From IMG/VR virus record IMGVR_UViG_2693429748_000018: a stretch of 6,417 bases of DNA. One strand, 5' to 3'. This document shows positions 1 to 5,959 of the stretch, piece by piece. Each line of letters opens with the position of its first letter. Within the stretch, counting starts at the first letter, position 1. This DNA comes from a virus. Taxonomy: Duplodnaviria; Heunggongvirae; Uroviricota; Caudoviricetes. The translations under genes and the position numbers were made by a program. The notes beneath the pieces are model-generated. The model saw only the letters and a program-made list of their open reading frames with translations, made no database searches and had not been told where the DNA came from.

Positions 1-419
1 TCCAGTATCCGGATGGTAAGCCGCCGGTATGGGCAAAGTGTACGAAAGGTGTGTATCCGTCTTACTGGGAAGAATGGAAAAAAGTCAGGGAGGTGGTAAA
101 AGTTGCCTGTCCGGAGTGTGGCGGAAAGGGTGAGGTTTCCACCGCCTGTAAGGATTGCCGTGGGCGTGGTGTCGCCATTCATCGTGAAGAGTCGGTAAAA
201 CGTGGTATGCCTGTTATCAGAGACTGCCAGCGTTGTGGTGGTCGTGGCTATGAAAGACTACCATCAACGGAGGCATTTAATGCTATATGCGAGGTGACAA
301 ACCAGATAACACGCGCGTCATGGGAAAAAACAGTTAAGAAATTTTATGATGCGCTGGTGACCCGGTTTGATATTGAAGAAGCATGGGCTGAGCGGCAGTT
401 AAAAAAGGTAACTAGGTAA
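1..419 (+). CDS. Q: Late-gene antiterminator Q, lambda type (3' portion; 5' end lies left of the window)
   Basis: Frame 3 is open from nt 3 to the TAA at 417-419, so the 122-aa track ORF (GTG at 51) is only the C-terminal part of a longer gene. It carries three Cys pairs (CPECGGKG, CKDCRGRG, CQRCGGRG) and a tail ...KKFYDALVTRF...KKVTR that matches, from memory, the zinc-binding C-terminal half of lambda Q. It is immediately followed by a lambda-like pR'/qut sequence. Confidence 0.8.
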   Translation, partial: QYPDGKPPVWAKCTKGVYPSYWEEWKKVREVVKVACPECGGKGEVSTACKDCRGRGVAIHREESVKRGMPVIRDCQRCGGRGYERLPSTEAFNAICEVTNQITRASWEKTVKKFYDALVTRFDIEEAWAERQLKKVTR

Positions 420-421
420 GG

Positions 422-464
422 TTGATTTTTCCGGAATCTGTGGTAAATTCGTCATAACGATGGG
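422..464 (+). promoter_or_regulatory. Late promoter pR' with Q-utilisation/pause region (lambda-like)
   Basis: TTGATT (422-427), 16-bp spacer, TG at 441-442, TAAATT (444-449), then CGTCATA and ACGATGGG (457-464). Lambda pR' reads GGTAAATT-TGACTCA-ACGATGGG (from memory), so the -10 and the start of the 6S transcript are both conserved. Predicted transcription start near 457. Confidence 0.6.
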
Positions 465-498
465 CGTTTTATGCCTGACGTTAGAAGAGTTTCTACAA

Positions 499-520
499 CC
501 CGCCGCCGAGCGGGTTTTTT
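499..520 (+). terminator. Intrinsic terminator, tR'-like, about 45-65 nt downstream of the predicted pR' start
   Basis: Stem CCCGC (500-504) / GCGGG (510-514) with loop CGCCGA, followed by TTTTTT (515-520). Confidence 0.6.
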
Positions 521-640: not shown

Positions 641-838
641 ATGCTAAAACAGCAGGATATGACAGAAACCGCCAGAGTGGTGTTTAATGAATTAAGCGTT
701 ACCGAACCGGCGACAGTCGGGGAGATAGCGCAGAATACTTACCTTTCACGCGAACGCTGCCAGTTAATACTGACCCAGCTGGTTATGGCGGGTCTGGCAG
801 ACTATCAGTTCGGTTGTTACAGACGCCTTCCGCAGTGA
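641..838 (+). CDS. Hypothetical small protein (65 aa), possible helix-turn-helix DNA-binding protein
   Basis: ATG at 641 preceded by AAGGAAAAG (purine-rich Shine-Dalgarno about 6-8 nt upstream). The segment TVGEIAQNTYLSRERCQLILTQL looks HTH-like. The stop sits inside a terminator hairpin. No family recognised. Confidence 0.5.
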   Translation: MLKQQDMTETARVVFNELSVTEPATVGEIAQNTYLSRERCQLILTQLVMAGLADYQFGCYRRLPQ

Positions 839-850
839 AGGCTTTTTTAT
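826..850 (+). terminator. Intrinsic terminator overlapping the stop of the 641-838 ORF
   Basis: Stem GCCTTC (826-831) / GAAGGC (838-843) with loop CGCAGT, followed by TTTTTTATTT. Confidence 0.5.
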
Positions 851-2148: not shown

Positions 2149-2180
2149 CCTTATGGACTTTGTTGTTTTAGTCCATAAGG
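2149..2180. repeat. Perfect 11-bp inverted repeat (CCTTATGGACT ... AGTCCATAAGG) with 10-nt loop at the 3' end of the minus-strand gene
   Basis: 2149-2159 is the exact reverse complement of 2170-2180. It overlaps the stop codon of the 2151-2486 minus-strand ORF. Confidence 0.7.
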
Positions 2181-2486
2181 ACATATTTGCAGAGTGCAAC
2201 GGTTATTAAAGCATTCATTCAATACGTTATCTGTATTTGTAGGGCATTCCTGGCTATTTTTGATTGAATTCCAGAATGTTTTATTGAATGGTACTACGTT
2301 GTAAATGGTTACAGGTAGCACTTTGTTATTGAGCATGATGCCTGTGTGAGTCAGTGTAAATATACTTTCAGGAGGTAAGAAAGCATCCGATTGATACCAG
2401 ATTATTAATTTTATTTTACTCCATATGACTGAAAAAGATATTCCGCATGATGGCTGGATAACTGTATCAATCACAATCCACTTCAT
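2151..2486 (-). CDS. Hypothetical 111-aa Cys-containing protein on the minus strand inside an AT-rich insert
   Basis: ATG (plus-strand CAT at 2484-2486) preceded on the minus strand by AACAAGGAAACTAA, a good Shine-Dalgarno (AAGGA) 6-7 nt upstream. Candidate promoter further upstream on the minus strand: TTTACA, about 15 bp, TATACT. The region is visibly AT-rich relative to its flanks. The 3' end overlaps a perfect 11-bp inverted repeat (2149-2180). No family recognised. Confidence 0.5.
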
Positions 2487-2812: not shown

Positions 2813-3025
2813 CACAATTCAGACGGTTGACAGTTGTCTGTTTTGCGGGGAGTTTGTTAAAAGAAACTGGCATGGTGAATCCCCCTGTGCGGAGGGGCAA
2901 TCAGCGAGTAGGTATATGGGATAATCGCGGATTCAGGTGCTGGTACTGAATTCACCGGGAGGCACCCGGCATCATGCAATGGCACATAGCGCCACTCTCC
3001 AGCCCTCTCCGGAGGGGCTTTTCTG
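2813..3025 (+). repeat. Structured non-coding module, copy B
   Basis: CACAATTCAG (2813-2822), TTGACA (2827-2832), the same two hairpins as copy A, and terminal stem CCCTC/GAGGG with loop TCCG followed by CTTTTCT. Differs from copy A at only a handful of positions over about 205 bp. Confidence 0.8.
3002..3025 (+). terminator. Intrinsic terminator ending module copy B
   Basis: GC-rich stem CCCTC (3003-3007) / GAGGG (3012-3016), loop TCCG, then a T-rich tract. Confidence 0.5.
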
Positions 3026-3213
3026 TGCCGGATACATCACAGTTTCTGGAACCTTAGGTACTACAGTATCAGTCAGGGTGCTATATTTTCAGATGTGATG
3101 AAAGCCTGTCAGCAGGCAGGGCGTATCGGAAATGACCCAGTAGAGAAAACGTTGACTCAGATACCGGTGCTGAGTTACCGGGAAACCGGCATCACATGAC
3201 CGCTATCCTTCCA

Positions 3214-3240
3214 GGCCCATCCGCTCCGGTGGGCCTTTTT
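3214..3240 (+). terminator. Intrinsic terminator just upstream of module copy C
   Basis: Stem GGCCCA (3214-3219) / TGGGCC (3230-3235) with an inner CCG/CGG pairing, followed by TTTTT (3236-3240). Confidence 0.5.
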
Positions 3241-3279
3241 ACTGCAGAAAACAGGTTCCCCGTTAAATGCTATGTTGCT

Positions 3280-3511
3280 CACAATTCAGTAAGTTGACAG
3301 TTGCCTGTCAGACTGGGCATTTGTTAAAAAAATTTCGCATGGTGAATCCCCCTGAGCGGAGGGGCGACTGGTGACGGTATAATCTCTGATTATCAAAACG
3401 AGAATGACGCGGGTTTAGTGGCACCGGGCTGAACTCACCGGGAGGCACCCGGCACCATGTGCATGATGATACAGATACGCGGCTTTAGCCCCTCTCCGGA
3501 GGGGTTTTCTT
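3280..3511 (+). repeat. Structured non-coding module, copy C (diverged)
   Basis: CACAATTCAG (3280-3289), TTGACA, and conserved blocks GGTGAATCCCCCTG.GCGGAGGGGC, CTCACCGGGAGGCACCCGGCACCATG and terminal CCCCTC-TCCG-GAGGGG followed by TTTTCTT. The blocks between them are substituted or inserted relative to A/B, including a perfect TATAAT in GGTATAATC. Confidence 0.75.
3489..3511 (+). terminator. Intrinsic terminator ending module copy C
   Basis: Stem CCCCTC (3489-3494) / GAGGGG (3499-3504), loop TCCG, then TTTTCTT. Confidence 0.6.
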
Positions 3512-3517
3512 GTGGGC

Positions 3518-3546
3518 AAAAAAAGCCCGCGCTGGGAGACGCGGGC
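3518..3546 (-). terminator. Minus-strand intrinsic terminator, convergent with the copy C terminator
   Basis: Plus strand reads AAAAAAA (3518-3524), GCCCGCG (3525-3531), loop CTGGGAGA, CGCGGGC (3540-3546). On the minus strand this is a perfect 7-bp GC stem followed by a U7 run. There is no U-run after it on the plus strand. Confidence 0.45.
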
Positions 3547-3739
3547 GGCAAGGAATAAACAATAAAACGTGAAGTAATATTTCAGCTGGCGAATAATACC
3601 CCATAGTAATCACTCTGCGCAACTGCGCGGTCTTTTTCGAATTGCGGGCTGTCGTCTCTCTTCTGCCATTGTCCTGTAACTTCCGGACTTCAGCCCGCTC
3701 CTTATTTTACTCACAATATTATCCCGGCCGGGAGGATTC

Positions 3740-5593
3740 ATGGCATTTAAACACTATGACGTGGTCAGGGCGGCATCGCCGTCAGACCTTGCGAAACGAC
3801 TGACACAAAAACTGAAGGAGGGCTGGCAGCCGTTTGGTAGTCCGGTGGCCATAACCCCTTATACCCTGATGCAGGCGATTGCAGCAGAAGGTGATGTGGT
3901 CGTCAGTGGTGCAACTGAGCCGGAGTGGTACTACGTCATCGTACTGGCCGGGCAATCCAATGCCATGGCTTACGGTGAAGGTCTTCCGCTTCCGGATTCA
4001 TACGATGCGCCCCATCCGCGCATTAAGCAACTGGCCCGTCGTAACACAGTGACTCCCGGTGGTGAAGTATGCGTATTTAACGACATCATTCCTGCTGACC
4101 ATTGTCTGCATGATGTTCAGGATATGAGTACGATTAACCATCCCCGGGCTGACCTGAGCAAAGGGCAGTACGGCTGTGTCGGACAGGGCTTACATATTGC
4201 CAAAAAACTGCTTCCGTATATCCCTAATAATGCGGGGATCCTGCTGGTACCATGCTGTTGTGGTGGTTCGGCATTCACCCAGGGCACGGAGGGGACATTC
4301 AGCGAGTCCACGGGGGCCAGTCAGGATTCGGCTCGCTGGGGAGTGGGTAAGCCGTTATATCAGGATCTGCTTTTCCGCACGAAGGCAGCATTGCAGAAAA
4401 ACCCGAAAAACGTTTTGCTGGCGATATGCTGGATGCAGGGGGAATTCGATATGACGAATGCCAGTTACGCCCAGCAGCCAGCAGCATTTCTTGCAATGGT
4501 ACAGCAGTTCCGTGCTGACCTTGCCGGGCTGGCGGCGCAGTGTCACGGTGGAAGTCCGGCATCAGTCCCCTGGATTTGTGGCGACACGACATACGCGTGG
4601 AAACAAGAACACGGTACGCAATATGAAGTGGTATATGGTGCATATAAAGGTAAAGAATCCCAGCAGATTTATTTTGTTCCCTTTATGACCGATGGTAGCG
4701 GAGTTAATACACCGACAAACAACCCGTCAGAAGATCCTGATATTGCCGGGTCTGGTTATTACGGTTCGGCATCCCGAACGAACAAAAACTGGGTATCATC
4801 AAATCGCCCGACGCATTTCAGCTCATGGGCGCGTCGTGGCATTATTCCCGATCGTATGGCAACTGCTATTCTGAACGTAGCCGGTCGCACCTTAGCCTTC
4901 ATTAGTGGTAAGGCACCGGAAATCAAACCCTCGCCCGGCGGCGACACGCCATCGGGGCCGTCTGAAGATGCATCCATACGCACAATCTCCCTGTTGCCGA
5001 CAGCCGGAGACGCTGCTGCGCAGGGCTGGAGCATTAAGAATGGCGGAGTTCAGTTGTCAGATGGTGTATTTAAGATCACCAAGCAGAGCAATAAAGCCTG
5101 GTCCCTGACGCGCCCGGTGGATGACGCAGTCTCCCTGCTGACACGGGGTGGCAGACTGAGCTGTAAGTTTCGACTGTCAGGCGCACTGACCAACAACCAG
5201 TTCGGTCTGGGAATTTATCTGTATACCGATGTAGCGTTACCTGACGTCGTGGCGATGACCGGGACTGGTAACCCGTTCCTGATGTCGTTCTTCACCCAGA
5301 CCACAGACGGCAAACTGAATCTGATGCATCACAAGAAAGCAGGAAACACAAAGTTGGGCGAGTTCGGGAATTACAGTAACGACTGGCTGACGCTGGAGCT
5401 GGTGTTCACCGCCGGCAGTGCCACGGTTACTCCGAAACTGAATGGAGTGGCTGGCCCGGCATTCCAGGTCATAAAAGACAGTCTGACACTGGGGCTGAAT
5501 GCGCTGACGCTGACGGATATTACCAAAAATGCAGCGTATGGCGTTGAGATAGAAAGTCTGGTGCTGGAGATAAATGCACCGGCATCATCATAA
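3740..5593 (+). CDS. nanS-p: Prophage-encoded sialate (9-O-acetyl-N-acetylneuraminic acid) O-acetylesterase, NanS-p/YjhS family (SGNH/DUF303-type), 617 aa
   Basis: ATG at 3740 with a strong Shine-Dalgarno (GGGAGG 7-8 nt upstream). The N-terminus MAFKHYDVV... and the conserved block VLAGQSNAMAYGEGLP (GQSN catalytic-serine motif of sialate O-acetylesterases) match the nanS-p ORF found just downstream of stx in Stx phages and in other lambdoid prophages. The smaller ORFs nested in both strands are shadow frames. Confidence 0.88.
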   Translation: MAFKHYDVVRAASPSDLAKRLTQKLKEGWQPFGSPVAITPYTLMQAIAAEGDVVVSGATEPEWYYVIVLAGQSNAMAYGEGLPLPDSYDAPHPRIKQLARRNTVTPGGEVCVFNDIIPADHCLHDVQDMSTINHPRADLSKGQYGCVGQGLHIAKKLLPYIPNNAGILLVPCCCGGSAFTQGTEGTFSESTGASQDSARWGVGKPLYQDLLFRTKAALQKNPKNVLLAICWMQGEFDMTNASYAQQPAAFLAMVQQFRADLAGLAAQCHGGSPASVPWICGDTTYAWKQEHGTQYEVVYGAYKGKESQQIYFVPFMTDGSGVNTPTNNPSEDPDIAGSGYYGSASRTNKNWVSSNRPTHFSSWARRGIIPDRMATAILNVAGRTLAFISGKAPEIKPSPGGDTPSGPSEDASIRTISLLPTAGDAAAQGWSIKNGGVQLSDGVFKITKQSNKAWSLTRPVDDAVSLLTRGGRLSCKFRLSGALTNNQFGLGIYLYTDVALPDVVAMTGTGNPFLMSFFTQTTDGKLNLMHHKKAGNTKLGEFGNYSNDWLTLELVFTAGSATVTPKLNGVAGPAFQVIKDSLTLGLNALTLTDITKNAAYGVEIESLVLEINAPASS

Positions 5594-5678
5594 AAAGTGA
5601 GCCAGCCAAATGGAAGGTATCGTTAAACTCACCGGTAGTGTCAGTGGGTCGTCTGAGATGCCTGCATGAGTTATCAGA

Positions 5679-5710
5679 GCCATCAGTACTTAACTGGTGG
5701 CTTTTTTTAT
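5679..5710 (+). terminator. Intrinsic terminator between the esterase gene and the lysis cassette
   Basis: Stem GCCATCAG (5679-5686) / CTGGTGGC (5694-5701), 8 bp including one G-U pair, loop TACTTAA, followed by TTTTTTTATT (5702-5711). Confidence 0.6.
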
Positions 5711-5743
5711 TGTTGTCAGCTTCCGGATAACGGGAGACGGGGT

Positions 5744-5959
5744 ATGTACCAGATGGAAAAAATCACAACAGGTGTGTCATACACCACGTCAGCGGTGGGA
5801 ACGGGCTACTGGTTCCTGCAGTTGCTGGACAGGGTTTCCCCGTCTCAGTGGGCGGCAATAGGCGTGCTGGGGAGTCTGCTGTTTGGGCTGCTGACATATC
5901 TGACTAACCTGTATTTCAAAATCAGAGAGGACCGTCGTAAGGCTGCACGGGGAGAGTAA
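5744..5959 (+). CDS. S: Class II holin (pinholin), S21/EssD-like, 71 aa, with dual-start motif
   Basis: [71 protein letters not shown] is near-identical over most of its length to the phage 21 S / E. coli EssD holin as I recall it. ATG at 5744 is preceded by GGAGACGGGG (Shine-Dalgarno), and Met1 and Met4 (5744 and 5753) form the usual antiholin/holin dual start. The 97-aa track ORF from 5666 is an in-frame upstream extension that crosses the 5679-5710 terminator and lacks a ribosome-binding site. Confidence 0.9.

Follow-up and report, generated by a model that had tools for sequence, protein, structure and literature searches.

The 6S RNA of phage lambda is 194 nt long, with the terminator tR' about 190 nt downstream of the start of the transcript. 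For the arrangement that produces such a leader we use the definition of a Q cassette given in PMC9388147. The Pfam names of the antiterminators are Q-lambda (PF03589), Q21 (PF06530) and Q82 (PF06323); in lambda, the Q-binding element lies between the -35 and -10 hexamers, and the zinc-ribbon arm of Q contacts both this element and sigma region 4 (PMC9388147). The reference record of phage P22 annotates the same set of parts, namely 'P late or P R'', a lambda-like qut site, the 5' nucleotide of the late RNA and 't late or t R'' at +31 to +59, which gives a leader of about 60 nt. The record of phage SfV likewise annotates a terminator equivalent to the one described below.

Short RNAs regulated by antitermination are known from lambda, 21, phi80, 82 and P22, none with an assigned function (PMC7547250). 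A better characterized case is StxS of the Stx1 and Stx2a phages, a constitutive transcript of the late promoter that is terminated before Q is present; RNase E processing of its 258-nt primary transcript, which runs from pR' to tR', yields a form of 74 nt, and StxS is an Hfq-binding RNA with rpoS and stx1B as targets of its regulation (Sy, Lan and Tree 2020, PMC7547250). StxS is reported to be absent next to the clade of 207-aa Q proteins, and its authors suggested that leaders of this kind may evolve into sRNAs (PMC7547250).

The DNA analysed here (the window, 6,417 nt) holds the start of the late region of a lambdoid E. coli prophage. It has the same gene order as the late region of E. coli TOE17, the closest annotated relative (record L003), in which holin, lysozyme and lysis protein genes are annotated downstream. 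Together with the holin gene of the window itself, this annotation places lysis and late genes downstream of the cassette and on the same strand. Positions 400-640 of the window are matched in 2957 of 5426 complete E. coli genomes. The features are as follows.

3-419, plus strand: 3' part of the Q antiterminator gene (Q-lambda family, from the translation and PF03589), truncated at the left end of the window
417-419, plus strand: Q stop codon TAA, from the reading frame
422-427, plus strand: -35 hexamer TTGATT of pR', from the sequence; lambda has TTGACT in the same position
428-443, plus strand: promoter spacer and presumed Q-binding element (TTTCCGGAATCTGTGG), from its position relative to lambda
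444-449, plus strand: -10 hexamer TAAATT, identical to that of lambda pR'
456-464, plus strand: start predicted at A456, the first base of the sigma-70-dependent pause element AACGAT, with GGG behind it, from identity with lambda
456-482, plus strand: predicted 5'-terminal hairpin, in which nucleotides 1-4 (AACG) pair with CGUU at +24 to +27, with an inner GGGCGU/AUGCCU helix
456-520, plus strand: predicted constitutive pR' leader RNA of about 62-66 nt, deduced from promoter and terminator
483-496, plus strand: A/G-rich single-stranded linker (AGAAGAGUUUCUAC), from the predicted fold
497-520, plus strand: intrinsic terminator tR', AACCCGC-CGCCGA-GCGGGTT with T6, from scan and fold
641-838, plus strand: 65-aa ORF from the ORF list, with its own terminator-like hairpin at the end
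825-848, plus strand: second terminator-like hairpin, from the terminator scan, ending the 65-aa ORF
987-1062 and 1163-1239: two tRNA genes
1936-2125, 2841-3030 and 3308-3517, plus strand: three full copies of STnc100, from the Rfam scan
2699-2808 and 3069-3242: two partial copies of STnc100, from the Rfam scan
3740-5593: sialate-esterase-type gene
5666-5959, plus strand: holin gene (PF04971)

The antiterminator gene, the late promoter and tR'

Positions 3-520 are, with a probability of roughly 85%, the cassette that regulates the late genes of a lambdoid E. coli prophage with a Q-lambda-family antiterminator. The element is a well-formed and ordinary cassette of Q, pR', pause element and tR'. 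The gene directly 5' of the promoter encodes a member of the PF03589 family: the fragment within the window matches this family with E = 9.5e-32 and its full-length relative from TOE17 (273 aa; L003 6199-7020) with E = 5.3e-54. An end-to-end alignment of the TOE17 protein with lambda Q gives 31% identity (E = 2e-41), and the protein also matches the solved Q-lambda structures 7UBM and 4MO1, so that the lambda-Q-like character ascribed to the upstream gene by a first-pass annotation made from the letters alone is borne out. An insertion of about 66 aa in the same protein brings in further CxxC motifs (DnaJ-like CXXCXGXG) and is apparently a second zinc ribbon. By alignment with lambda Q, the insertion falls inside the zinc-ribbon arm, and since this arm contacts the DNA, the details of Q binding may differ from those in lambda.

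The -35 hexamer TTGATT begins 3 nt after the Q stop codon and is kept in 80 close relatives. It is followed by a spacer of 16 bp ending in TGG (441-443), in which T441 and G442 form an extended -10. The resemblance of the -10 and initial transcribed sequence to lambda pR', pointed out in the first-pass annotation, turned out to be exact over GGTAAATT-N6-AACGATGGG at 442-464 (17 specified bases), including the length of the 6-nt gap, which reads CGTCAT in the window and TGACTC in lambda. This motif occurs only once in the window, and the match to lambda pR' is significant, about 0.01 occurrences being expected by chance even with 2 mismatches allowed. A generic promoter scan left pR' below threshold because only 8 of the 12 hexamer positions match, a deficit that the TG extension offsets in part.

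The segment AACGATGGG (456-464) is identical to lambda +1 to +9, stands at the same distance from the -10 and is conserved at nearly all Q-lambda-family loci examined. By lambda geometry the start is presumably A456, and from this and the P22 record we infer that A456 is the transcription start of this allele. A start in the region of 457, as first proposed, is thus still predicted, with the base itself one nucleotide earlier. The first transcribed bases form a -10-like sequence of the kind found in sigma-dependent pause elements, and pausing is predicted near +16 to +18 (471-473). Variants of the pause element that are nearer the -10 consensus (AATAAT, AATGAT and AACAAT) occur at L081 and L089, which are close relatives of this allele, and at L075 and L079, with no compensating change in the 3' arm of the leader hairpin; they might alter the strength of the pause. 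A 22-codon ORF running through the leader from an ATG at 460 to a TGA at 528 was rejected because no Shine-Dalgarno sequence was seen, because it passes through the terminator and because the lambda ATG stops after two codons.

The spacer varies with the clade of the neighbouring Q protein. The core TTTTCC(C/G)GAAWCTGTG is common to this allele and to loci whose Q is 50-58% identical, the SfV/Qin clade of Q goes with TTTTTCAAAAAATATGGA and the lambda/P22 clade with TWTTGAATAAAGTTGGG. In all, at least four spacer classes track Q identity, and the pause element AACGATGGG is constant across them. Such covariation would be expected if every Q recognised a spacer of its own. Positions 428-443 are presumed to be the Q-binding element on these grounds, and Q and its site look like the cognate Q/qut pair that had been supposed.

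An intrinsic terminator lies between the pause site and the late genes. Its stem (497-503/510-516) encloses a loop at 504-509 and runs into a T-tract at 515-520, which places the hairpin at +42 to +61 and the end of the T-tract at +65. It was found by a consensus terminator scan and folds with -11.2 kcal/mol (z = -2.6); close relatives keep the stem, and changes are mostly in the loop. The earlier placing of a terminator at 499-520, about 45-65 nt downstream, agrees well with this hairpin and T6 at 497-520, which form the first terminator after pR', at +42 to +65 from the predicted start.

In the proposed mechanism, host RNA polymerase with sigma-70 would start from pR' at about A456. Sigma region 2 would then bind again, this time to the -10-like AACGAT at +1 to +6, and the polymerase would pause near +16 to +18. 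Without Q, transcription would terminate at the hairpin and T-tract of 497-520 and release a leader RNA of about 65 nt. After prophage induction, Q would bind the spacer element 428-443 and load onto the paused complex, and the Q-modified polymerase would pass 497-520 as well as later terminators (825-848), so that the tRNAs, the accessory genes, the esterase gene and the lysis genes would be transcribed. The hairpin at 825-848 is likely a back-up stop that is to be read through by the Q-modified polymerase. For this particular allele, we infer Q binding and Q-dependent readthrough from the sequence. The cassette marks the start and the stop of late transcription in a prophage type that over half of the complete E. 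coli genomes carry, and it helps to annotate tRNA, accessory and lysis genes as Q-dependent.

Leader length across the Q-lambda family

Family loci were collected from one genome per species and, with four Q protein queries, from IMG/VR. The sample of 322 loci derives from the best 80 hits of each of the four queries and is a non-random sample of the family. At nearly all of them, in many Enterobacterales genera, the Q stop codon is followed by a -35 hexamer, a -10 hexamer, 6-7 nt, (Y)AACGATGGG and a terminator. The loci yield 158 unique leaders, and the terminator scan detected a terminator in 145; the predicted RNA measures 49-80 nt in 135 of these 145, with a median of 58. Where the scan detected no terminator, the unique leaders are mostly of the lambda 6S type (about 60 loci in all), and the large tR' hairpin of lambda escapes the scan used. 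Leaders with a lambda-like body occur elsewhere, for example at L012 and L163, and among phages whose Q and spacer are both of the lambda type a short leader, AACGATGGATAAATGCACTCGTTAAATAAAGCCCTGAG...GGGGCTTTTT, is frequent; this is the arrangement of P22. The position of the terminator is kept across the family even though its sequence has been replaced by at least three unrelated hairpin types, which argues for selection on early termination itself.

Among the described systems, P22 resembles the window in its Q-lambda-family antiterminator (the gene 23 protein, 31% identical to the window Q), its -10 hexamer TAAATT, its start at the first A of AACGAT and its 5' AACGA/UCGUU stem. It differs in having a lambda-like spacer (Q-binding) sequence, an unrelated terminator hairpin (AAGCCCTGAG...CTCGGGGCTT) and a Q of 207 aa without the extra zinc-ribbon insertion, and in that its lysis genes follow tR' without intervening tRNA or accessory genes. 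Lambda shares with the window the Q family, the identical GGTAAATT-N6-AACGATGGG, the order of the parts and a 5' stem at the start of the RNA. Unlike the window, lambda has the -35 hexamer TTGACT, a 17-bp spacer without a TG extension and a different Q-binding element within that spacer. The body of lambda 6S RNA is without a counterpart in the window, only AACGATGGG and a short CGTT motif being shared by eye; the RNA predicted here is about 65 nt long and is not a 194-nt transcript with the lambda body.

The cryptic prophage Qin of K-12 and phage SfV agree with the window in architecture, in the AACCCGC...GCGGGTT type of terminator and in a leader of 63-67 nt, whereas their Q is only about 41-44% identical to the window Q, their promoter spacer is TTGCATTTTTCAAAAAATATGGATAARAT and the linker sequence is different. 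The Qin element, which follows ydfT (quuQ), reads AACGATGGGCTTTGTATACCCGACGTTAAGAAAAAGTAGAAAACCCGCTGATGAGCGGGTTTTGTGC. In two of the growth conditions tabulated for Term-seq of K-12 (Adams 2021, PMC7815308, supplementary file 1), position 1642356(-) is listed as an 'orphan' 3' end; the flanking sequence given for it matches the Qin hairpin, and the 3' end falls 8 nt after the hairpin. Counted from the predicted start at 1642422(-), the Qin leader is 67 nt long. The Cappable-seq supplements gave no match for the start site of this K-12 homologue, and a search of the literature on quuQ/ydfT and on sigma-dependent pausing in cryptic prophages returned nothing relevant. A second 'orphan' 3' end lies at NC_000913.3 1642188(-), 168 nt downstream of the Qin leader terminator (PMC7815308), and may mark readthrough transcripts that stop at a second site.

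The close spacing of start and terminator had been taken as a special property of this locus because lambda was the only reference. The family figures (135 of 145 leaders at 49-80 nt), the P22 terminator at +31 to +59 and the Qin 3' end do not support this view. The short leader is the norm of the Q-lambda family and the 194-nt 6S RNA of lambda is the outlier. This corrects the lambda-centred expectation, a leader of about 55-70 nt being typical in the family and 6S RNA the exception.

The 5'-terminal hairpin and possible roles of the leader RNA

The predicted leader begins with a hairpin, continues with an A/G-rich linker and ends in the terminator hairpin. The whole RNA (456-520) folds with -21.4 kcal/mol (z = -2.2), and the 5' hairpin (456-482) with -9.3 kcal/mol (z = -2.5). 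The same AACG/CGUU stem is predicted in Qin and SfV, and in the predicted fold of lambda the 5' stem appears in a slightly shifted register, starting from nucleotide 2. The hairpin was located as follows at other loci.

L001 (lambda), 788-812: 5'-terminal hairpin
L380 (P22), 2888-2910: 5'-terminal hairpin
L021, L056, L155-L158 and L161: 5'-terminal hairpin

When +1 to +32 was aligned with MAFFT, the 3' arm did not fall into one column because loop lengths differ. A covariance model of the stem aligned the leaders with consensus arms and missed the loci with variant arms that carry the covariation; the stem was scored instead by folding each sequence and matching its arms. In the fold of +1 to +32, a 5'-terminal stem is present in 85 of 102 unique family leaders, compared with 15% of controls in which positions 7-32 were shuffled. 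Compensated arms are AACAA/UUGUU (L021, L154), AACA/UGUU (L155-L158), AAUGAUGG with 8 bp paired (L056), AAUGA/UCAUU (L234, L235) and AAGAAUG/CAUUCUU (L161), and several single C-to-U or G-to-A changes in an arm keep G-U pairs. Uncompensated variants also exist (AAUAAU in L081 and L089, others in L079, L254, L257, L306 and L308); the stem is thus widespread without being present throughout the family. Allowing for shared ancestry, which makes the raw counts too high, there are about three or four independent compensated events.

In the family leaders, nucleotides 1-4 or 1-5 are predicted to pair with a conserved CGUU located about 20-27 nt downstream. The occurrence of compensated arm variants in at least three clades is evidence for selection on pairing. 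It is conceivable, though we consider it rather doubtful, that the Q-lambda-family leaders (lambda 6S RNA, the P22 leader and the RNA of about 65 nt) share a selected 5' hairpin whose 5' arm is the RNA copy of the pause element. If true, this would point to a function at the RNA level. By reasoning alone, the hairpin might possibly protect the 5' end of the leader or late mRNA from RppH and RNase E, or aid events that follow Q loading. A literature search, with the primary 6S RNA papers outside its scope, returned no description of an RNA-level role for the leader 5' hairpin. A co-varying 5' hairpin that overlaps the pause element is the only part of this cassette that is of some wider interest.

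A further role, which would add to that of the cassette and not replace it, is that the RNA of about 65 nt acts in trans during lysogeny as an Hfq-dependent sRNA like StxS, pairing with host or phage mRNAs via its linker or hairpin loop. The RNA has the general shape of an sRNA, with a stable 5' hairpin, a single-stranded linker AGAAGAG (A-R-N-like) and a terminator with a U-tail. Its K-12 homologue has a strong 'orphan' 3' end, Hfq RIL-seq data (PMC8175672 supplement) include the intergenic region between cspF and ydfT as a node, and StxS with the leader-to-sRNA evolution proposed for it offers a precedent (PMC7547250). However, the RIL-seq-based sRNA score of the same K-12 region is very low (0.0024; PMC8175672 supplement), an Rfam scan of the window with E values up to 1 found nothing in 422-560, the RNA has no similarity to StxS, and the analysis identified no target for it. 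Family members have linkers of about 2-20 nt with unrelated sequences; being variable in both length and sequence, the linker provides no conserved family-wide seed, although the linker of this allele could act as one. We therefore regard a trans-acting sRNA as unlikely.

The comparison with StxS-type sRNAs made in the first-pass annotation is a poor one in other respects too. StxS is, like the window RNA, a late-promoter by-product of antitermination control. Since short late-leader RNAs have already been published, the general idea is known, and the window RNA is an analogue of StxS by origin only. StxS derives from a 258-nt precursor and adjoins a 144-aa Q of the Q21 family (PF06530), whereas the window Q belongs to PF03589, and blastn of the window against the Sakai Sp5 region gave no match for 422-560. 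Homology to StxS was rejected because of this lack of blastn similarity. An Rfam scan of the Sakai StxS region gave no match to an StxS family and only a weak RprA-like match. Identity with sRNAs of the AgvB/AsxR type was also rejected, these being located downstream of accessory genes and on the opposite strand (PMC4104026).

In the Q21-family late leader that gives StxS in Sakai Sp5, a small hairpin at the 5' end precedes AACCCGCCGATGCGCGGG and U7. Terminator-like hairpins in Q21-family late leaders are located as follows.

L002 (Sakai Sp5), 969-993: terminator-like hairpin at +24 to +48
L007, 1499-1527: terminator-like hairpin

The Sp5 hairpin at +24 to +48 lies inside the published 258-nt precursor of StxS, and late transcripts of many Stx phages might conceivably stop at about +48. 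In phage Stx2a_1447, this same leader is joined directly to downstream sequence that is shared with the window, without the StxS body.

Module boundaries and the region downstream of tR'

Similarity between SfV and the window starts exactly at 456, the predicted +1, and that of many Stx2 phages starts at 497; within this allele, two alternative sequences follow the T-tract. Homology breakpoints at 456, at 497 and after the T-tract fit a modular build. The fact that the homology of the Stx2 phages begins exactly at the start of the hairpin, and that two sequences alternate right after its T-tract, could also mean that 497-520 stops transcription weakly or only by accident, or serves chiefly as a joint for recombination between modules, and that the effective tR' lies farther on, for example at 825-848. 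Such a reading would accommodate the gene insert flanked by two hairpin copies in phage Ayreon and the Stx2c phages, the modest stem of tR' (7 bp, -11.2 kcal/mol, T6) and the second K-12 3' end, whose position 168 nt downstream points to a degree of readthrough. We nevertheless find it improbable, given that a terminator at +40 to +70 is kept family-wide even where unrelated hairpins replace the sequence, that termination occurs in vivo at the equivalent hairpin of the K-12 Qin homologue with a high Term-seq score, and that the P22 and SfV records annotate the equivalent hairpin as the late terminator. Moreover, a module boundary is compatible with a role as tR'.

Copies of the tR'-type hairpin are found in Ayreon at 814-857 and 1493-1531 (L006) and in an Stx2c phage at about 1500-1526 (L008), where they flank an inserted gene for a 141-aa lipoprotein-like product. 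The two flanking copies indicate that this type of hairpin also behaves as a module junction for the insertion of accessory genes.

Many E. coli prophages are cryptic, and the present one could be defective. Still, it is very improbable that the cassette is a silent remnant whose promoter no longer fires or whose Q no longer works: TOE17 as the closest relative has several early-region pseudogenes and the promoter hexamers are sub-consensus, but the 80 close relatives hardly differ in promoter, pause element and terminator, the region persists in 2957 of 5426 complete genomes, and even the cryptic Qin prophage of K-12 still yields a terminated RNA 3' end.

Several further elements lie downstream of the Q cassette. 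ARAGORN assigns the tRNA gene at 987-1062 to tRNA-Met with anticodon CAT, and its equivalents in the Sakai and TOE17 records are tRNA-Ile (ileZ type; the Sakai anticodon is also CAT); the gene probably encodes a lysidine-modified tRNA-Ile. The STnc100 copies, with E values from 3e-37 to 6e-3, lie among the accessory genes that separate the two tRNA genes from the esterase gene. A 111-aa ORF at 2151-2486 (-) stands in the place of the annotated 111-aa anti-adapter protein IraM of TOE17, a positional match, and its Pfam search gave no match. A minus-strand RNA candidate at about 3518-3590 (-) has the 3' end GCCCGCGUCUCCCAGCGCGGGC followed by U7. The segment that contains it is 78% identical to the Sakai Sp5 region downstream of stx2B, where convergent sRNAs of the AsxR/AgvB type have been described (PMC4104026), and the candidate is probably a member of this sRNA group.
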